Shown: in pieces, positions 1,998-23,660 of the stretch | How the letters are laid out: every line of letters starts with the position of its first letter | How positions within the stretch are numbered: the first letter of the stretch is position 1 | DNA from: a virus | Lineage: Duplodnaviria; Caudoviricetes | DNA: 64,000 bases | Strand: one strand, 5' to 3' | IMG/VR virus record: IMGVR_UViG_3300033069_001378 | Coordinates: 96,001 to 160,000 of that record | Position numbers and translations under genes: made by a program | The notes under the pieces: generated by a model | Told to the model about the DNA's origin: nothing | The model's input: only the letters and a program-made list of their open reading frames with translations | The model's database searches: none

Positions 1998-3727
1998 CAC
2001 AGCAACAAATTCAAGAAGTAAAAACGCAAGAAGTTGTTTTTGGAGACAAGGCACACTCTGAAATACTAAAGGGTGCAACAATTCTAGCGGAAGCCGTCAA
2101 GTCTACGATGGGACCATCAGGTCATAGCGTAATCATTGATATGGACGTCGGTGCTCCTCTTATTACCAAAGACGGAGTAACTGTTGCAAGAAGCATCAAT
2201 CTCAAGGACCGTCTTCAGTCAATGGGTGCCGAGCTAATCAAAGAAGTTGCTTCAAAGACAAACGAGCTTGCAGGAGACGGAACCACAACAGCTACCGTTC
2301 TTGCTCATACCTTACTTCAAGCAGGAACAAGAGCGGTTGCCACAGGATGCTCTTCCATTGAACTCAAAAAGGGAATGGATATAGCAACAGAGACAGTCCT
2401 TCAGTTCTTGAAGGAAAATGTCACTCCTATTAGCGGAAAAGAAGACATAATCAACGTTGGAACCATTTCCGCAAACGGAGACAGAGAACTTGGACAACTT
2501 ATTGCAGACGCAATTGAGAAGGTTGGACAAGATGGAATCATAACAGTAGAGCCAGCCAAGAGCGTTCATACGACACTCAACACGGTAGAAGGACTACAGC
2601 TTGATTCAGGATACGTCTCAGGTTTCTTTATCACAAATTCCGAAAAGGCAAACTGTGAATTTGAGAATCCTTACATTGTCATTACTGCCAACAAGATCGT
2701 CAACATTTCCGATGTTGTTCCAATCATGGAAAAGGCAATAAACGCAAACAAACCACTTGTCATCATTGCAGACGACATTGAGGGAGAAGCATTGCACACA
2801 CTTATCGTTAACTCGATGAAAAGAGTTATCAAAGTTTGCGCAATCAAGGCTCCTAGTTACGGTGAACACAGATCAGACCTTCTTGGGGATCTTGCAACGG
2901 TTGTTGGCACAGAAGTTGTTGGTGCAACAACAGAGCTAAAGATTGACAGAATGAAGGTAGAGAACTTTGGAACCTGTGCAAAGGTTATCGTCAACAGAGG
3001 AAACACAATCTTTGTTGGAAGTGACAAGGATCAGTCTCTCAAGGCAAGAACAAAAGAAAGAATCGATTCCCTGAGAACTCTTTTGACAACCGATAACACA
3101 CTTGACGAGGCTCGTATGGCAAGGTACCGCCAGAGGCTTGCAAAGCTATCAGGAGGCGTTGCAATCATCAAGGTGGGTGGAAGTACCGAGATTGAAATCA
3201 GAGAGAAGAAGGACCGTGTAGACGACGCTGTGAATGCAACCATTGCTGCAACTCAAGAAGGCATTGTCCCCGGTGGTGGAACCATGTTGTTCTATGCGTC
3301 TCAGTATCTAAAGGAATATCTCAAGAGTGAAAAGCTTATTGGAATTCTTTCTGATGACACAATGACTGGTATAAAGGTTGTAGCAGAAGCTTGTGAAGCT
3401 CCATTTAGAACAATCATCGGTAATACAGGAAGAAGTCCAGACGTATTTGCCAATGACCTACTAAAGACAATCGAAGGAACCGTCATATATTCAACAGAGC
3501 CAAAGACCTATGTTGACGAACATGGAAAGTTACACACTTGGAAACTTCCTGCAAGCTTCAACAAAGGTTTTGACGCACGTACAGGTAAATACGTAGACTT
3601 GATTGCAAGCGGCGTTATTGATCCTTCAAAGGTAACTCGTTTGTCCCTTGAACATGCCACTTCTGTTGTTGGACTTGTTCTTACATGCAACTCGATAATC
3701 GTTAACAGTGAAGAAAAATCAAACTAA
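1994..3727 (+). CDS. groEL: Chaperonin GroEL (Cpn60)
   Basis: TMGP, ITKDGVTVA, AGDGTTTAT, TISANGD, RLAKLSGGVA, EGIVPGGG and GVIDP motifs. Confidence 0.98.
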   Translation: MTQQQIQEVKTQEVVFGDKAHSEILKGATILAEAVKSTMGPSGHSVIIDMDVGAPLITKDGVTVARSINLKDRLQSMGAELIKEVASKTNELAGDGTTTATVLAHTLLQAGTRAVATGCSSIELKKGMDIATETVLQFLKENVTPISGKEDIINVGTISANGDRELGQLIADAIEKVGQDGIITVEPAKSVHTTLNTVEGLQLDSGYVSGFFITNSEKANCEFENPYIVITANKIVNISDVVPIMEKAINANKPLVIIADDIEGEALHTLIVNSMKRVIKVCAIKAPSYGEHRSDLLGDLATVVGTEVVGATTELKIDRMKVENFGTCAKVIVNRGNTIFVGSDKDQSLKARTKERIDSLRTLLTTDNTLDEARMARYRQRLAKLSGGVAIIKVGGSTEIEIREKKDRVDDAVNATIAATQEGIVPGGGTMLFYASQYLKEYLKSEKLIGILSDDTMTGIKVVAEACEAPFRTIIGNTGRSPDVFANDLLKTIEGTVIYSTEPKTYVDEHGKLHTWKLPASFNKGFDARTGKYVDLIASGVIDPSKVTRLSLEHATSVVGLVLTCNSIIVNSEEKSN

Positions 3728-3753
3728 GAAGAGAAATTTAGGAGAACAACAAA

Positions 3754-4116
3754 ATGGCAAAAGGTGACAGAGTTAGAATTGACGCAACAACAGGGATCTT
3801 CTCAGAAAACGGAGGACAAGAACTTGTCTACGTTTATGAACCAAGAATTGATCCAAACACAGGTAAGCCTCTTATGAATCCATCTGACGGCACTTGCTTG
3901 ATCGAATGTAAGGGTGGAATCACAAAGGGTTCGTTCGGATTCATTGAAGGTGAAACTCTTAAGATCAGCAAAATGTCTCTGAAAGATTACAATGGAGTTC
4001 CTGGCATCCATGGAACAGATACAACTATACTGATTCCAGTGTTCCTAGAAAGATATCAACGTCGTGGTTGGTTTCCAGCCGACAACGTGAGAATTGTAGC
4101 AGGTGGTTTAGCCTGA
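3754..4116 (+). CDS. Hypothetical protein (beta-rich, possibly SH3-like)
   Basis: 120-aa ORF, AGGAGA upstream. Confidence 0.7.
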   Translation: MAKGDRVRIDATTGIFSENGGQELVYVYEPRIDPNTGKPLMNPSDGTCLIECKGGITKGSFGFIEGETLKISKMSLKDYNGVPGIHGTDTTILIPVFLERYQRRGWFPADNVRIVAGGLA

Positions 4117-4220: not shown

Positions 4221-4889
4221 TTACTTCTTGGTCTTAAGAGCTTCTCTGATGATATTTGTCATCTGAGTTCTTGTTAACTTTACTGTTGTACCTTCTGTCA
4301 ATCCGTAGATATCTGCGTAGCCTTTTGCTTCTTCTGGTGTTCTACGTCCAGTTGCAATATCAAATGACAAGTCTCCACCGTTGTCTGCTTGAGTCTCAGG
4401 CATGTAGGTTGATGCCGAGACAAGGTTTTCTTCTGCGTGAACAAGAAAACGTGACATTTTGTCTCTTCTTTTACCTCTTGGAAGTTGAGCTACAAAGGAC
4501 TGTAGGTTCTCGATTGCTCTAATAGCAATTCCCATGTTTGCATCGATGCTTCTTGTAACATCGCCTGGAGCTTCTTCAAGGGCATCTTCTTCCATTACTT
4601 CTGAATAGCCTTCTTCTACTGGTGGTTGAGCTTGAACTCCGATAATGTGATTAAGGAACTGATCCCAATCCATTTCCATCGATTCACCAGTTGGTGTCCA
4701 TTCGCTTGGCTCATCGTCATAGAAAGAATCTTCTTGATAGAGATCAACGAAGTGTCTTGCGTCAACTCCACTCTTATCGAGCAGCGCGCTTATCTTCTCA
4801 AAAATGTCGCCACGGATTGTCTTTTCAAAGTAGTTGACTTGATTGACGCCGGCTTTTGCTAATAGTTGTGCTAATTTCTGTTTGTTCAT
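4221..4889 (-). CDS. Acidic hypothetical protein, possible internal head protein
   Basis: 222-aa ORF with C-terminal LTRTQMTNIIREAL. Confidence 0.7.
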   Translation of the reverse strand: MNKQKLAQLLAKAGVNQVNYFEKTIRGDIFEKISALLDKSGVDARHFVDLYQEDSFYDDEPSEWTPTGESMEMDWDQFLNHIIGVQAQPPVEEGYSEVMEEDALEEAPGDVTRSIDANMGIAIRAIENLQSFVAQLPRGKRRDKMSRFLVHAEENLVSASTYMPETQADNGGDLSFDIATGRRTPEEAKGYADIYGLTEGTTVKLTRTQMTNIIREALKTKK

Positions 4890-17516: not shown

Positions 17517-17545
17517 ATTATACAGGCAATTTCCTAAATGTAAAC
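17517..17545 (-). promoter_or_regulatory. Sigma70-like early promoter (leaderless start)
   Basis: GTTTACA-N16-TATAAT, 6 nt before ATG. Confidence 0.75.
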
Positions 17546-17733: not shown

Positions 17734-18111
17734 TTATTTGGCATACGGGACAATCTCACACCAAACCAAGAACTCACCAAATCGATCATTGAAAGAATCG
17801 GAGACTTCTGACTTCACATAGTCGAGGTTGAACATCGTTGTCTTATACCACCATGTACCTAGATCAAAGATTTGTAAGTCTGCTAGGTGAGTTGCTTCTT
17901 TATAGGCAGCAGTTTCGGCTTCATACTTGTCTTTGATTGACATAAGGTATGTTCCGTTATGAAACACCGAATACTTGAAACCCAAGATCATTGACCTGCA
18001 AGTATGGTTATACGAAGTCTTTAAGGGATTCTGTTGTGTATACGTTGTTAGGTTATGATTTATGCACAAGAAAACAGAATGTTGAAAACTTGTTGTTGCT
18101 CGGATGGACAT
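17734..18111 (-). CDS. Hypothetical protein
   Basis: 125-aa ORF, TATTTA motif just upstream. Confidence 0.45.
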   Translation of the reverse strand: MSIRATTSFQHSVFLCINHNLTTYTQQNPLKTSYNHTCRSMILGFKYSVFHNGTYLMSIKDKYEAETAAYKEATHLADLQIFDLGTWWYKTTMFNLDYVKSEVSDSFNDRFGEFLVWCEIVPYAK

Positions 18112-18144
18112 GAGGATAAATATCCATGCCGATTAACAAAAAAG

Positions 18145-18179
18145 AAAAACCGGACTACCTTTCGATAATCCGGTCTTTC
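18145..18179 (-). terminator. Intrinsic terminator
   Basis: ACCGGATTATC...GGTAGTCCGGT stem followed by TTTCTTTTTT on the minus strand. Confidence 0.7.
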
Positions 18180-18261
18180 GGGGCTGTAGTTTATACCCGC
18201 AAGAGATATAAGCTATGCTTCCACCACCTACTTTATCCTAAGTAGGAAAGTCTGTCTGTTT

Positions 18262-18495
18262 TCAGATTGTGACGAAGCGAGCGACGCTTACTTCACGACC
18301 GTTTTGAACGAGTTCCGAACGAACTTGCTCTGCCTTCTCACGAGTTGAGAAGATGTAGCTTACGCTACGTGGTGAGCGAGCAATCGCTCCATCTTCAACG
18401 AGAGCCCAAACTGGGGAATCAAGTTGCGCACGCTTGCTGGTTTCGCGGAGACGTGCAAGGAGGCGTTCTGTCTTGTTTTGTGTTGATGTAGTCAT
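18262..18495 (-). CDS. Hypothetical early protein
   Basis: 77 aa, GGAG ribosome-binding site. Confidence 0.65.
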   Translation of the reverse strand: MTTSTQNKTERLLARLRETSKRAQLDSPVWALVEDGAIARSPRSVSYIFSTREKAEQVRSELVQNGREVSVARFVTI

Positions 18496-19112
18496 AGTTG
18501 TGATACTCCAATGTTCTTTGTTGTTAATACGTAACGTTTGTATATTCCTAATGCTTTTTTCAACCCGGTCTATAAAATGGTTTAGATTTGACCGACGTTG
18601 GTTTTTAGGAGCATCGAGGTTCAGCAGTCGGTGACGTTCTGTCTGTCTCTCGATGTTCTATAGTGATACACTAGGTAGAGATTAGAGTAAACAGGTCGCA
18701 ACAACTTTTATTATCGCTTATCTGTCTTTCTTTTAGGCATATTCTTAGTCAATTTTGAATAACTTGCCAATGCCTTTTACCAATGCCCAAGAAGCAATCG
18801 TTAAGCCAAAAGCTAAGATTGTCATCTGATCAATTGTAAGATTCATGTTCTTTGTCCCCTTTCCTAGTCCTAGATAGTTCTAGTGTAGGACAAAGTGTGT
18901 AACAGGAATGTAACTTCGTGACGCAGCGTGTCAAAAAAGTGTATCAGTCAGAGGAAGAATCTGGCTTCTCGACTCTTGGAGTCTCCTTCTTTGTATCAAA
19001 CTTAGTCTTAAACTTTTGTCTACGCTTCTCACTTTTGTTGAAAGCGGTATCTGTAAAGACTTCTTGAATCAGAAGTTCCCTTATGTATTCTTTAAGCAAA
19101 TCCCTTGGAGCC

Positions 19113-19385
19113 TTACTCATGGCGTAGTGACCCTTCGCTTGCTACAGAGGCTTGTGACGAATATAGAATCGTTCTAGGAGGTTGTTCTTGTGTTGCTGTA
19201 GATACTGCTGGCACGCTTGTTGTTGTCGCAGCAGTCTGTTGTTGGTTATTGTGCTTTGCGTGCAATCCACCTGCCACGGAAACCAAAATAAAGCCTATGA
19301 GCAATCCGATCTGTAACGTTGACAATGTGATTAGAAAGTCAGCCTGTTTCGACGGAGAAGAAGAGACTCTATATAGATTTTCCAT
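19113..19385 (-). CDS. Small membrane protein
   Basis: One hydrophobic segment (LITLSTLQIGLLIGFILVSVAGG). Confidence 0.55.
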   Translation of the reverse strand: MENLYRVSSSPSKQADFLITLSTLQIGLLIGFILVSVAGGLHAKHNNQQQTAATTTSVPAVSTATQEQPPRTILYSSQASVASEGSLRHE

Positions 19386-19448
19386 GTATCGTACCTACCC
19401 TTGAATTTGCTACAACTTGGTATAAGTATGCATCGAAATTTCAAAATG

Positions 19449-19480
19449 AAAAACCCGATGATTGCTCACCGGGTCTTCTT
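19449..19480 (-). terminator. Terminator downstream of Ro60
   Basis: ACCCGGTGA-GCAA-TCATCGGGT followed by TTTT on the minus strand. Confidence 0.65.
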
Positions 19481-19500
19481 ATTCTTCTATTTTGTTTTTC

Positions 19501-21105
19501 TCAGAAGCCAATCTGTGAGGATTGTTCAATCTTTGAAACCCAAAAATCTGGATCATTCTTCTCATTGTCTGCAAACGCTTCCATGATCGAGAAAACGTTG
19601 TCCGAGAAACCACCAACACAAAGAACGTCCTGGGCAGGCTTGATCTGTGCTGTAAGGTTTGGCTGCATATCGATGCAGATCAACTTTGCCTTTGGGTTGC
19701 GAGTCTTAAAGGTTGCCCACTCGTGAGCAAGACCTGTTCCCTTACGGAACCCTGAGTTATAGAACTCCATCCAAGACTCGTTATCGGAGACGATAACAAC
19801 GAAATCTCCCTTTGCTGCATTCGAGTTAAGATGACGAAGGACCGACGAGCAGTCCGTTCCACCACCAGAAAACGAAATCTTTGAGATATTCGTCATGACT
19901 GAATCGCGAGCATTCAATCCCTTTAATGGCTTGCAAGCCGTATCAAACTGCAATACCTCGGTATTGTCGTTTGCCTTTACCATTGCTGCCGCGATCAAAG
20001 CTGCAACCTCGTTGCAGTTAATCTTTGACGTTGCAGTACCACGGGTTCCCGTGATTGGCGACTGCATTGAGCCGGATACGTCTACTCCAACAAAAATCTT
20101 CTTTCCGTTGAATGATGGAACATTCTTTACAGCGTGCTCCATTGCGTCCTGCAACGCATTCTTTACCTTGACAGGTACAGAATCATCAACAGTCTTGTAT
20201 GCTGCGAAAAGCTGGTATGGGAATACCTTTGCGTGCTTTACGTTACCCTCGTCTGCAAGACGATCTGCAATGAGCTTCGTCAAGCTAGAATCCTTGAATA
20301 CACCATGACGAGCAAAGGTATTAAGGTTCATACGAGTCATCTGCCACTTTGCGTCCGTGGCAATCTTCTTCCAATGAGTCTCAGTCAATGGAAGCGAAGT
20401 AAGCATCTGGAATGGAACCTTTGGTGCCTCTGCCTTGGAAGCAAAGTTAACCTTGAAGTCCTCGTACTCCTGAACAATCTTTGGGAGATTGCCCTTTGAC
20501 TCTGCGGAAATCTCATTTCCCATGAAATACTTGAAAAGCGTCTCACGAACGTTTGAGTTTGGCTTAACGTGAGCCAAACGGATCACGTCAACAAGCGATG
20601 GATCGTTTCCAACGGAATCCGAGAAAAGCTGCTCGTCTGTACGAGCATCAAACCACGCCTTGATTGCCTTCTTTGGCGCGGAACCGAGGCTCTTACGACC
20701 AAGCGCACCTGAACGAACGATCTGAACAAAGTTGCGGAGCATCTTTGAGTTATCGATAACCAATGGAAATGCCTTCTTGAAGAGGGCAACGTCCTTCGTC
20801 GAAAGGACTGCAAGCAAGAATGCTGGCATATCCTTCATGTATGCTGACTGACGCGAGTAGACTGCAAGCTTTGCGATGAAAGCTGCATCGACGGTCTTAT
20901 CCAAGAACAAGCCCTGAATCGACTTGAGGTGCTGATCTGCGTCTGCGTAGTAGGTTCCGTTGAAAGTACCCGTTACGGCATACTGTGCGATTGCCTGCTT
21001 TGCCGTGAGCGAATATGCCTTACCACCTGCAAGGTTGGTTGCATTCGCAACTGGAACGTTTGACTGTGCTACTGCGGACTTGTTGAAAATATTCTTGTTT
21101 GCCAT
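19501..21105 (-). CDS. Ro60/Rsr (TROVE + vWA) RNA-binding protein
   Basis: N.AGG.AY, GTFNGTYYA, KMLRNFVQI.RSG..GRKSLGS, RMNLNTFARHGVF, FPYQL, vWA DVSGSM...GGGTD...SDNESW. Confidence 0.95.
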   Translation of the reverse strand: MANKNIFNKSAVAQSNVPVANATNLAGGKAYSLTAKQAIAQYAVTGTFNGTYYADADQHLKSIQGLFLDKTVDAAFIAKLAVYSRQSAYMKDMPAFLLAVLSTKDVALFKKAFPLVIDNSKMLRNFVQIVRSGALGRKSLGSAPKKAIKAWFDARTDEQLFSDSVGNDPSLVDVIRLAHVKPNSNVRETLFKYFMGNEISAESKGNLPKIVQEYEDFKVNFASKAEAPKVPFQMLTSLPLTETHWKKIATDAKWQMTRMNLNTFARHGVFKDSSLTKLIADRLADEGNVKHAKVFPYQLFAAYKTVDDSVPVKVKNALQDAMEHAVKNVPSFNGKKIFVGVDVSGSMQSPITGTRGTATSKINCNEVAALIAAAMVKANDNTEVLQFDTACKPLKGLNARDSVMTNISKISFSGGGTDCSSVLRHLNSNAAKGDFVVIVSDNESWMEFYNSGFRKGTGLAHEWATFKTRNPKAKLICIDMQPNLTAQIKPAQDVLCVGGFSDNVFSIMEAFADNEKNDPDFWVSKIEQSSQIGF

Positions 21106-21201
21106 GATGATTCACCTCTGTTAAAAAATAGAGTAAAGTTGTGTGATGAGACTATGTTTTTTGCGATTACCATTCTCAACTGTGAGAATGAAGAAATACA
21201 A

Positions 21202-21278
21202 ATACGAAGACAAAAGTGGTAAAGTTGTTTTTGTTCAAAATAATGGTTTGATGTAAACCTTACCGGCATTCTTCATAT
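21202..21278 (-). ncRNA. Candidate Ro60-binding Y-RNA-like RNA, copy 1
   Basis: AUAUGAAGA-AUGCC-GGUAAGG-UUUACAUC...CUUUACC-ACUUUUG-UCUUCGUAU self-pairing, directly upstream of Ro60. Confidence 0.65.
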
Positions 21279-21288
21279 GTGAAATTGA

Positions 21289-21361
21289 GATAAGACAAAA
21301 TTTGCAAAGTTGTTTTGGTATTCAGTGTTCGAATGATGTAAACCTTGCGAGCATTCTTATC
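21289..21361 (-). ncRNA. Candidate Ro60-binding Y-RNA-like RNA, copy 2
   Basis: GAUAAGA-AUGCUC-GCAAGG-UUUACAUC...CUUUGC-AAAUUUUG-UCUUAUC, with compensatory changes relative to copy 1. Confidence 0.65.
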
Positions 21362-21367
21362 AAAGAT

Positions 21368-21444
21368 TGGTGATCCCAACGAGATTCGAACTCGTATTGC
21401 GCACCTTGAAAGGGTGGTTTCCTAAACCGTTAGAAGATGGGACC
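21368..21444 (-). tRNA. tRNA-Glu(TTC)
   Basis: Cloverleaf, loop CT-TTC-AA, TTCGAAT T-loop, encoded CCA. Confidence 0.93.
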
Positions 21445-21462
21445 ATGTTATTATTGTTGAGT

Positions 21463-21537
21463 TGGTTCGGGAACTAGGATTCGAACCTAGATAAGCAGAT
21501 TCAAAGTCTGCGGTCCTGACCGTTGGACGATTCCCGA
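21463..21537 (-). tRNA. tRNA-Gln(TTG)
   Basis: GCAGA-CTTTGAA-TCTGC, encoded CCA. Confidence 0.95.
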
Positions 21538-21540
21538 ATA

Positions 21541-22115
21541 GTTGGCTGTTATTGTCACTTCTACACCCCATTTTTACCAGGGCTCCATGCCAAAACATTT
21601 CGCTTACCAAGCGTCTCATCCGAGAAGGAGCTTTGTTGACGCTTTCCACACAAGAATCACCTTATGCTGCTTAAACGTCTTTTCATTTCATGCAGGTCAT
21701 ACTGCACTAGTGGTGATTAGCCACGCTGCTATCTTTCTTTTTCTGATGAAAACTTCTAGTCTTCTTGAATCCATTACTGGTACTTCGTTCGAAGCGGGAA
21801 TCACCCCACTTACTTACCCACACAGTTGCGTTATTCGGTCACACTCCTATAAAGCTAGCTAGGCTTTAGTCTACAGAATGGAGAGCATTTACTCTCAAAA
21901 TCCCAAGCTCTGATCGAATTGGTCAGACTCACTTACTACACTAGAACGGAACACGCATTGTCCTAGCTTCATAATACCTTACGCTTCTATGCCTCTCAGA
22001 TTCCACCCGTATTCCGCTGATGGATGCCTTATTCTCCCGAGCAAGGATTTGGTTCAGCCACAAACAAAATGCCAGTAATGGATTCAAGCAGTCGTCATTG
22101 TCATCATATTAAGTT
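21541..22115 (-). ncRNA. Large (~570 nt) structured non-coding RNA, ROOL/GOLLD-like candidate
   Basis: No credible ORF; 17-bp long-range helix 21764-21780/22072-22088; many hairpins; promoter at 22125-22153; lies inside the tRNA array. Confidence 0.7.
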
Positions 22116-22160
22116 GTTCTAAGTATGTACCACAAGTTTGATTTTGTGTAAACCTCTATC

Positions 22161-22562
22161 TCAAAAAATTCTTTCGAAGAGGATCTTATTGTACGCTCCG
22201 AAGGGACCATCAAGCAATTCCTGCTTGGTACACCACTTTATGATGCCTTCACCTTCGATTTGCCCCTTCCATTTGAGAGGAGGCAACCAGTTAACAGTAC
22301 CAAGAAAAGTTGTCGTTGTAAAGTCTTGTTCGCCTTTACAGAGACGTTCGAACACATTTGCCAGGATTGTAAATTCAAAACCTGTTTCTTCCAACACTTC
22401 ACGAACTACCGCTTGTTCATCCGTTTCACCGGGATCCACTTTTCCTCCAATCAATCCAAAGGCATGATAGTTGTCTCGCCTTGAGATTGAGAGAATATGC
22501 TTCTTGGTGTCTGGATGGACGATCAAAGCACAAACTGCTTTACTTCTTTGTGTTTGTTGCAT
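22161..22562 (-). CDS. Nudix hydrolase
   Basis: GGKVDPGETDEQAVVREVLEETG Nudix box. Confidence 0.95.
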   Translation of the reverse strand: MQQTQRSKAVCALIVHPDTKKHILSISRRDNYHAFGLIGGKVDPGETDEQAVVREVLEETGFEFTILANVFERLCKGEQDFTTTTFLGTVNWLPPLKWKGQIEGEGIIKWCTKQELLDGPFGAYNKILFERIF

Positions 22563-22566
22563 AATT

Positions 22567-22642
22567 TGGTGATCCCGGTGAGAATCGAACTCGACACGCC
22601 AAGATTGAGAGTCTTGTCACCTGACCGTTAGTGTACGGGACC
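22567..22642 (-). tRNA. tRNA-Glu(CTC)
   Basis: CAAGA-CTCTCAA-TCTTG, encoded CCA. Confidence 0.92.
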
Positions 22643-22655
22643 ATTTTTTGAGATC

Positions 22656-23006
22656 TTAGATCTTTGAAATCTGCTTGAGTTTTCGCCTGTCTCGCTTTCG
22701 CATGAAAGGCATAATGAAAGGTGGAAGTTCCCTGACCCTGAAAGTCTTCCCCGCATGTTCACAAGAGGGCTTTGCTTGTTCCTTCTTGAGTGCCTTTACG
22801 TAAGCAACAGGATCATCCTCGAAAAGCTTCTTAGAGATTCTGTAACCGTGGTAAAGTTCGTAATCGTGCTCTCGCATAATCTTGCCGCACTTGGTACAAA
22901 CAAAGGTTCCAAGACTCCAGCAGTCTTCACCAAACTCTTCACGAGGCTTTGGCTTGAATTTCTGCAATTTCGGTTTTACATGAGTCTTTTTTGTATCTGT
23001 GGACAT
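22656..23006 (-). CDS. Basic hypothetical protein (CxxC...CxH)
   Basis: Start MSTDT at 23006; the upstream extension in the track overlaps a tRNA. Confidence 0.6.
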   Translation of the reverse strand: MSTDTKKTHVKPKLQKFKPKPREEFGEDCWSLGTFVCTKCGKIMREHDYELYHGYRISKKLFEDDPVAYVKALKKEQAKPSCEHAGKTFRVRELPPFIMPFMRKRDRRKLKQISKI

Positions 23007-23522: not shown

Positions 23523-23660
23523 TTTCCCCGTCTTTCCGGGGTGTCAGGGGCGCGTCTCAATATCTTGGAATCGAACCAAGTTTCACCCATTACTAGGCAG
23601 CTTTTCCATAATAAGCTAATATCAAACCCCAACGCGATTTCCGGTCTTTCCCTGGTGTCA
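23523..23660 (-). repeat. Two copies of a TGACACC..GGAAAGAC.GG hairpin motif (23523-23546 and 23638-23660)
   Basis: TGACACCCCGGAAAGACGGGGAAA and TGACACCAGGGAAAGACCGGAAA. Confidence 0.75.
23557..23625 (-). pseudogene. Degenerate tRNA-like element (possible GTA anticodon, no CCA)
   Basis: TAGCTTATTATGGAAAAGC D-arm, CTTGG-TTCGATT-CCAAG T-arm, weak anticodon arm. Confidence 0.55.

Follow-up and report, generated by a model that had tools for sequence, protein, structure and literature searches.

The window analysed here is a 64,000-nucleotide (nt) stretch of DNA comprising bases 96001-160000 of a 252.5-kb IMG/VR virus contig from a jumbo phage, and within it we describe a structured RNA element of about 325 nt, termed the core, at 21764-22088 on the minus strand. 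Around the core this strand carries every gene and all 11 tRNA genes. Reading along it we find a NUDIX hydrolase gene (22161-22562; Pfam NUDIX 1.4e-13) as the upstream neighbour, a gap at 22160-21538 in which the core lies, tRNA-Gln(UUG) (21463-21537) and tRNA-Glu(UUC) (21368-21444), each called by ARAGORN and Rfam, two Y-RNA-like repeats, and the gene encoding Ro60 (19501-21105), with its TROVE and vWA domains (Pfam vWA_Ro60 1.2e-15, TROVE 1.9e-9). ARAGORN, Rfam and Pfam between them confirm the flanking tRNA-Gln, tRNA-Glu and Ro60 genes that were named in an initial annotation of the region. The same annotation saw no credible open reading frame (ORF) in the gap, and we agree. Stop codons are abundant in all six frames of 21538-22160 (10-23 per minus frame and 5-10 per plus frame), with the standard code in use elsewhere. 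An alternative genetic code is not needed, as the window reads well in table 11 and the gap is full of all three kinds of stop.

The gap was initially annotated as one giant non-coding RNA of ~570 nt, structured along its whole length. It is indeed non-coding, but it is not a single unit. It consists of a promoter, a variable spacer, the conserved core of 325 nt and a second element of uncertain standing, and only 22088-21764 is both conserved across lineages and thermodynamically unusual. The description as giant is wrong because the functional unit is ~325 nt, about half of the proposed size.

The borders of the core are marked by a perfect 17-mer inverted repeat at 21764-21780 and 22072-22088, as originally noted. 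It occurs once in the 252-kb genome, extends to 29 nt at 86%, and there is no other inverted repeat within 900 nt. We collected homologues from 100 Ro60 loci on viral and metagenome contigs, together with contigs fetched through relatives of Ro60 and NUDIX. The most divergent copy of the core, 75% identical to that of the window, lies at 3081-3409 of contig L025, whose Ro60 is 62% identical to that of the window phage. L102 and L103 carry a copy at 1671-1993 that is 97.8% identical to the window core, with a Ro60 of 66% identity, and L108 has a partial copy running from 3563 to the contig end, 93.9% identical, with a NUDIX of 79% identity. Two further contigs (L111 and L112) match the whole 623-nt gap at 100% and come from the same phage in other samples. 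In every comparison homology is limited by the inverted repeat (window 22088/22087 and 21764/21765), and the sequence beside the core is unrelated between lineages and differs in length. The distance from the core to tRNA-Gln is 226 nt in the window and 18 nt in L025. NUDIX is also found upstream of the core in L102 and L108, and an unannotated ORF of 142 amino acids takes its place in L025.

The core is more strongly conserved than its surroundings. Between L102 and the window the core is 97.8% identical, compared with 83% for the NUDIX gene, 83% for a block on the 3' side of the core and 72% for Ro60. Only seven differences separate the L102 core from that of the window, and five of these fall in a single apical loop, 21921-21915 on the minus strand, which is the sole hot spot of change among close relatives. 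The changes found in L102 recur in a DNA contig of run X8; the loop is variable in a wastewater DNA contig, and its sequence and length both differ in L108 and L025.

So far the core has been seen in one narrow group of jumbo phages only, from fresh water, wastewater and sediment. River metagenome runs contain DNA near-identical to the window, and contigs of one wastewater run and one peat run provide long matching pieces with few differences from it. No further homologues were found among the INPHARED phages (by blastn), in IMG/VR with three sequence patterns (exact or gapped), in 185,579 species genomes with one such pattern, in five complete or large related phage genomes, or by nhmmer and covariance model R1 in 100 sources totalling 740 kb. 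The extra contigs reached through relatives of NUDIX and Ro60 (L109, L110, L113 and L116-L118) stop short of the site or have another context.

The homologues provide a test of the predicted fold. RNAalifold applied to the window and L025 gives 96 pairs, of which 22 have changed on both sides. The model that we used for counting has 102 pairs, including one candidate pseudoknot, and was scored on four sequences. All of the 355 pair cells form standard pairs. In 24 pairs both partners have changed; controls in which the partners are displaced by 1-3 columns give 0-5. None of 500 shuffles attains any of five measures of the model. L108, which was not used in deriving the model, adds two compensatory pairs in the helix 218-223/251-256. 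Covariation among homologues, suggested at the outset as a check on the RNA, is thus found in these four sequences.

The manner in which the sequence varies is also informative. Between the window and L025, 58 of the 188 paired columns (31%) differ and all still pair, whereas 22 of the 136 unpaired columns (16%) differ. The stems thus drift and the loops and junctions stay fixed, as expected of an RNA that makes contacts through its unpaired regions. The fold is predicted to be markedly stable on the minus strand, at -111.7 kcal/mol (z -4.55), compared with -86.8 kcal/mol on the plus strand. Many G-U pairs are present in the model, including in the terminal helix of L025, and these would be A-C mismatches on the opposite strand; this indicates an RNA read from the strand of the tRNA genes.

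In the predicted structure a terminal helix of 27 base pairs (bp), P1, brings together the two ends of the core. Its 5' strand is 22061-22088 and its 3' strand 21764-21791. Three hairpins lie near to P1, from which a long composite helix leads to an inner junction with four hairpins. The fold can be described as P1 with nine further helices around two multi-helix junctions, or as 14 helices when the candidate pseudoknot is included. Comparison of P1 in the window, L102 and L025 reveals no broken pair; in seven pairs both partners have changed and in six only one, and the U-G pairs of L025 can form on the minus strand only. Some of the nested hairpins proposed at first are retained in the supported structure, namely GAGAG/CUCUC and UAAAGC/GCUUUA; a third, UCUGA/UCAGA, is rivalled by the pairing GAGUCU/GGGAUU, which has the support of covariation.

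Three loops are of particular note. The invariant word GGAAUACG (22008-22015) forms the loop of the hairpin 22023-22003. A second hairpin (21941-21966) has a covarying stem of 7 bp and an invariant 12-nt loop, AAUGCGUGUUCC, within which CGUGUUCC occupies 21955-21948. In L025 both partners of four stem pairs have been replaced, and the loop is identical. GGAAUACG and CGUGUUCC are complementary over 8 bp and both are invariant in four sequences. A complementary run of this length would arise between random loops of such sizes with a chance of 0.008. We regard this pairing as a candidate pseudoknot or kissing contact. The third hairpin (21850-21868) is closed by the stem UAAAGC/GCUUUA, in which two pairs covary, and presents the invariant loop CUAGCUA (21862-21856). 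This loop contains the 6-nt palindrome UAGCUA, for which the chance in a 7-nt loop is 0.03. By analogy with other RNAs, the palindrome could mediate self-association of two copies.

Perfect terminal inverted repeats might alternatively denote DNA that moves. The core would then be a non-autonomous element similar to a miniature inverted-repeat transposable element, or a cassette for recombination; the 17-bp repeat would form its ends and the fold would be incidental. Several observations would fit. The repeats are perfect over 17 bp (29 nt at 86%), the sequence beyond the junctions is unrelated, phages with 97.8% identity in the core show 72-83% in the adjoining genes, the core is present in some relatives and absent from others (such as L105), and homing endonucleases traffic in the same tRNA arrays. 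However, there is one copy per genome, with locus and orientation fixed in all carriers, and no target-site duplication at four junction pairs. The repeats differ between lineages in a compensatory manner, with U-G pairs among the changes; this is sensible for an RNA but not for a transposase site, and ten internal helices covary while the loops are invariant. The genome contains no reverse transcriptase (RVT_1), although transposases were not searched for. We therefore consider a mobile element decidedly improbable.

Upstream of the core there is a promoter-like site at 22124-22153 on the minus strand, comprising GTTTACA (22153-22147), a 17-nt spacer and TACATA (22129-22124), with ATACTTA at 22126-22120. 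The initial annotation had picked out TTTACA-N17-TACATA and the ATACTTA motif, and these (22153-22120) prove to be an instance of a genome-wide promoter word. The word together with a TATAAT-like hexamer stands in front of dozens of genes of this phage. The site is kept in L102, L108 and L105, a similar one lies 150 nt upstream of the L025 core, and in each of the four lineages the word precedes the core by 25-205 nt. The intervening 5' spacer (22089-22123 in the window) is unconserved and mostly unrelated in sequence between lineages, and its length ranges from ~30 nt in the window to ~150 nt in L102 and ~205 nt in L108. Downstream, no convincing terminator was found between the core and tRNA-Gln. 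From its sequence and position the site is inferred to start transcription into the core, and co-transcription with tRNA-Gln and tRNA-Glu is plausible.

Across the genome we find a wider consensus on both strands, approximately ATTTTCC-N7-GTTTACATTTGGAAAAT-N5-GCTATAAT, ahead of dozens of genes. It often has an inverted repeat around the -35 word, with examples in the window at 17545, 17071, 16764, 14059 and 24885.

Among public sequencing runs sharing words with this region we examined two DNA runs and, from separate studies, two metatranscriptome assemblies. One RNA contig of 166 nt corresponds to 21829-21994 with a single difference, and another of 242 nt corresponds to 21818-22059 with 20 differences. 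Both lie wholly within the core and have no loose ends. The 242-nt contig is a fifth sequence variant, and within pairs of the model it has one G-C to A-U swap and four switches between G-U and A-U. In the two RNA runs (X15 and X16) the rest of a 1.7-kb stretch is uncovered save for generic tRNA-Gln-like pieces of other organisms; we do not count this lack of cover as evidence. The contigs are a weak hint of a stable transcript of the core. The proposal of a new structured non-coding RNA is well supported by conservation, compensatory changes and this occurrence in RNA libraries.

Given its position, the core could be a cis-acting leader of the tRNA-Gln/tRNA-Glu unit, serving its folding, protection, timing or processing and having no independent life. 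The promoter always precedes the core and tRNA-Gln always follows it, with the orientation unchanged, and in L025 the core ends 18 nt before the tRNA with no terminator between. Yet the sequence that separates the core from the tRNA is unrelated between lineages and ranges from 18 to more than 300 nt. The tRNA can do without the core, because L105 (Ro60 62% identical) has the same promoter followed by ~60 nt and then tRNA-Gln, with neither the core nor the 3' block. Moreover the sharp borders, self-closing fold and invariant loops resemble those of a free-standing RNA, and the contigs from RNA libraries hold core sequence only. A role purely as a leader is unlikely.

We have also asked whether the core belongs to an RNA family that is already known. 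No family of Rfam 15 matches the gap at E<=10 (scan of 20900-22700), nor does any match the core of L025 at this level. The initial annotation had suggested a ROOL-like RNA and named ROOL and GOLLD as the models to try. Homology to these was not found: besides the empty scan with all families, neither ROOL (RF03087, gathering cut-off 99.1 bits) nor GOLLD (RF02032, 150 bits) has a match at E<=10 in the 252-kb genome, where for ROOL the control genomes were themselves without ROOL and the sensitivity is unproven. Intron families of groups I and II are likewise without a match at E<=10, the group-II-D1D4-1 model is empty in the genome, and the core lies between genes. A retron or group II intron was set aside on the lack both of a reverse transcriptase in the genome and of any model match. 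Neither models nor ARAGORN called a tmRNA, RNase P RNA, signal recognition particle RNA or 6S RNA.

The core might still be a divergent member of a catalogued class, for example manA, ROOL, GOLLD, tmRNA, RNase P RNA or the introns of groups I and II. It shares with ROOL and GOLLD its phage origin and its place next to tRNA genes, and one weak match to manA (RF01745) was obtained in L102, at 18.7 bits and E 0.01. But no family reaches E<=10 over the core in the window or L025, the ROOL, GOLLD and group-II-D1D4-1 models are empty in the genome, and ARAGORN calls no tmRNA. The manA match is far below its gathering cut-off of 55.2 bits and is confined to L102, with none in the window or L025. It relies on unconserved spacer, and marks as unpaired positions that covary as pairs. 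We judge membership of a catalogued class to be very improbable indeed. The RNA family that the core represents appears to be new and of narrow distribution, although its general kind is known.

Two other possible relationships were tried and rejected. Three words of the core resemble the 16S 530-loop by eye, but local alignments of the cores of the window and L025 to the 16S and 23S rRNA of E. coli score at the mean of shuffles, and the small-subunit rRNA (SSU) model has no match to the core. Prediction of duplexes with phage tRNAs or the Y-like repeats gave no target common to the window and L025. The invariant core word was absent from the literature searched, a search that did not extend to a catalogue of 10,006 candidate phage RNAs (PMC10690425).

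Taking these results together, we think it probable that 22088-21764 on the minus strand is the gene of an independently folding, stable RNA of ~325 nt belonging to an uncatalogued family, which is derived from the precursor of a tRNA operon and acts in trans. Transcription would begin at the phage early-type promoter at 22153-22124, with the core as the first part of a precursor composed of spacer, core, spacer, tRNA-Gln and tRNA-Glu. Given that the spacers vary freely and the core is conserved, the mature RNA is probably excised from this precursor. RNase III cuts long end helices of this 27-bp type in ribosomal RNA precursors, and a double-strand-specific cut by host enzymes in or beside the terminal helix could free the core in a similar way. 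RNase P would define the downstream end, at the 5' end of the tRNA. The freed core would then accumulate as a stable RNA acting in trans. As to its role, our guess is a protein- or RNA-binding scaffold or decoy for the phage's tRNA and RNA-surveillance module, possibly self-associating. We make this guess because of the constrained loops and the precedent of ROOL, GOLLD and OLE.

A number of points weigh against this interpretation. It is based on four lineages and one variant from an RNA library, with three of the lineages close to each other, so that most of the covariation comes from the divergent L025. The structure was derived partly from the same sequences that score it. The invariant 5' region (22060-21995) has alternative foldings beyond the resolution of covariation, and the pseudoknot and palindromic loop are without covariation because nothing in them varies; a palindromic loop is moreover expected by chance in about one of five RNAs of this size. 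The 242-nt variant has 2-4 apparently broken pairs, two of which have partners at positions where its differences are unlisted. Assembled contigs give neither ends, strand nor level, and carry-over of DNA is possible. No function-bearing motif was recognized in the core, and we infer the processing, the ends, the stability and the action in trans.

The closest precedents are ROOL and GOLLD, which like the core are phage-encoded multi-helix RNAs with conserved loops that lie beside tRNA genes; they contain pseudoknots, of which the core has a candidate. The core shares with RNAs of this kind that it is phage-borne, has tRNA-Gln downstream in all carriers and adopts an ornate multi-helix fold with conserved loops. 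It is smaller, ~325 nt compared with model lengths of 574 positions for ROOL and 416 for GOLLD, whose members are often longer than 800 nt. In the solved assemblies of ROOL, GOLLD and OLE, monomers are joined by apical loops that are conserved or palindromic, as symmetric kissing loops (PMC12286853). ROOL and GOLLD form homo-oligomers of RNA only, whereas self-assembly of the core is a guess for which the palindromic loop at 21862-21856 provides the only lead. On this basis the core may conceivably represent a third class of phage RNA that assembles itself, smaller than ROOL and GOLLD. Copies joined via UAGCUA, and perhaps by GGAAUACG and CGUGUUCC pairing intermolecularly, would build a particle consisting of RNA alone; derived from the precursor of a tRNA operon, this particle would work with the tRNAs or the Ro60/Y-RNA machinery. 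We offer this as a speculation with a small chance of being correct.

Other systems share single features with the core. RNAC and RNAD are non-tRNA RNAs transcribed from the tRNA region of phage T4 (PMC3014915). Like the core they lie within a phage tRNA cluster. They are excised from tRNA precursors by host processing enzymes, and at ~120-140 nt are far simpler than the core, from which we set them apart by description and not by sequence. In the stalks of rRNA precursors, as in the core, the flanks of a folded RNA form a long helix within a polycistronic precursor that also carries tRNAs; there the resemblance is one of shape only, as the helix of the core belongs to a conserved homologous unit. 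ManA is a structured RNA of phage and marine origin, and look-alike words (GUGAC.GAAUAA and GGUG) are present in the 3' third of the core, but the match is seen in one homologue only, at 18.7 against 55.2 bits, with a pairing unlike the pattern supported by covariation.

The bacterial and phage Y RNAs (YrlA, RF02553; YrlB, RF02565) also invite comparison, as they too are found near Ro60 on the same strand and are closed by a long helix between their two ends (PMC4201824). Y-like RNAs encoded by phages are bound by phage Ro60 (PMC4201824, PMC12135203). The core could thus be an outsized partner or substrate of the phage Ro60 of Y-RNA type, with its terminal helix bound by the protein, which it would gate or tether. 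In the window, L025 and L102 the core is 0.6-2.5 kb upstream of Ro60 on the same strand, and Y RNAs are likewise close and have a long helix formed by both ends. Against this, L105 and ~95 other Ro60 loci lack the core, the Ro-binding word GNCGAAN0-1G of bacterial Y RNAs is absent from all four copies, and neither YrlA nor YrlB matches over the core, which has no tRNA-like module. At ~325 nt the core is three times longer than Y RNAs, which are of 80-130 nt, and separate Y-like repeats already adjoin Ro60. The association is also biased, because the loci were mostly found through Ro60. The link between the core and Ro60 is one of synteny only, and we consider a Y-RNA-type partnership quite unlikely.

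The two Y-RNA-like repeats themselves (21200-21367) both hold the promoter word GGTTTACAT in the same relative place, with TACCAA 15-16 nt later. Their score with Rfam YrlB is 20.9 bits against a cut-off of 97 bits. They may be Y RNAs, may serve as promoters for Ro60, or may do both.

On the 3' side of the core, the sequence from 21763 to 21538 comprises a spacer and a block (21538-21720) that is kept in the nearest relatives only. The block is 83-91% identical in L102 and L104 and absent from L025, L105 and L024. Insertions and deletions of 1-2 nt indicate that it is not coding. The initial annotation placed a 3' domain here, which we do not recover: the stem AGCGUC/GACGCU is broken in L102, the region is missing from L025, and the fold (21538-21761) has z -0.45, no better than shuffles. 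We have accordingly rejected this part as a structured RNA. Among three close sequences it has four pairs changed on both sides.

Although the shapes of ROOL and GOLLD have been solved, the role of large phage RNAs beside tRNA genes is still an open question. To these the core adds a compact RNA with clear borders, whose structure is unusually cleanly supported given the small number of sequences. The stronger constraint on its loops than on its stems suggests contacts with something else. The module in which it lies comprises tRNAs, Y-like RNAs, Ro60, a NUDIX hydrolase and an RNA ligase as well. With a length of only 325 nt the core is simple to transcribe in vitro, so that it can be tested from sequence without culture of the phage.

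The space between the promoter and the first tRNA accepts RNA modules in these phages, with none, one or two in a given relative. The tRNA-Gln of L105 is immediately preceded (4450-4500) by a short conserved leader, CCTAG.TGATCTGGAATAAAACAG.GATAGGTTG, and in L102 (1533-1570) the same leader is found between the promoter and the core. The two positions mark the interval from promoter to tRNA as an insertion site for RNA modules.

In L102 the ancestral tRNA-Gln gene is apparently split, with its first ~25 nt at ~2325-2351 and its last 42 nt at 3191-3232 (92.9% identical to those of the window). The pieces are separated by a gene for an HNH endonuclease (2287-2922) and by another tRNA-Gln, which is complete (2908-2983). 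The region 2287-3232 has no match to a group I intron model, and resembles a cassette in which an endonuclease gene arrived together with a replacement tRNA. Next to tRNA-Glu lies a further HNH gene (3276-3986).

Other tRNA arrays near Ro60 have features of their own. In five contigs (L001, L002, L016, L027 and L028) of the clade with Ro60 at 56-58%, a tRNA with the anticodon CUA, called 'Pyl' by ARAGORN, lies 280-350 nt upstream of Ro60. A tRNA of this amber suppressor type hints at recoding of TAG in those phages. In L019 a tmRNA gene (3298-3676; tag DTFARPMAA) is located inside the tRNA array upstream of Ro60.

Two further regions of the window may be mentioned. The 1.4 kb downstream of Ro60 (18111-19500) has short ORFs only, is 72-75% conserved with L102, L104 and L105, and may contain small genes or further RNAs. 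At 23554-23626 ARAGORN reports a tRNA-like gene with a two-base 'anticodon' (ta), and a similar oddity is found at 2016-2085 of L025.
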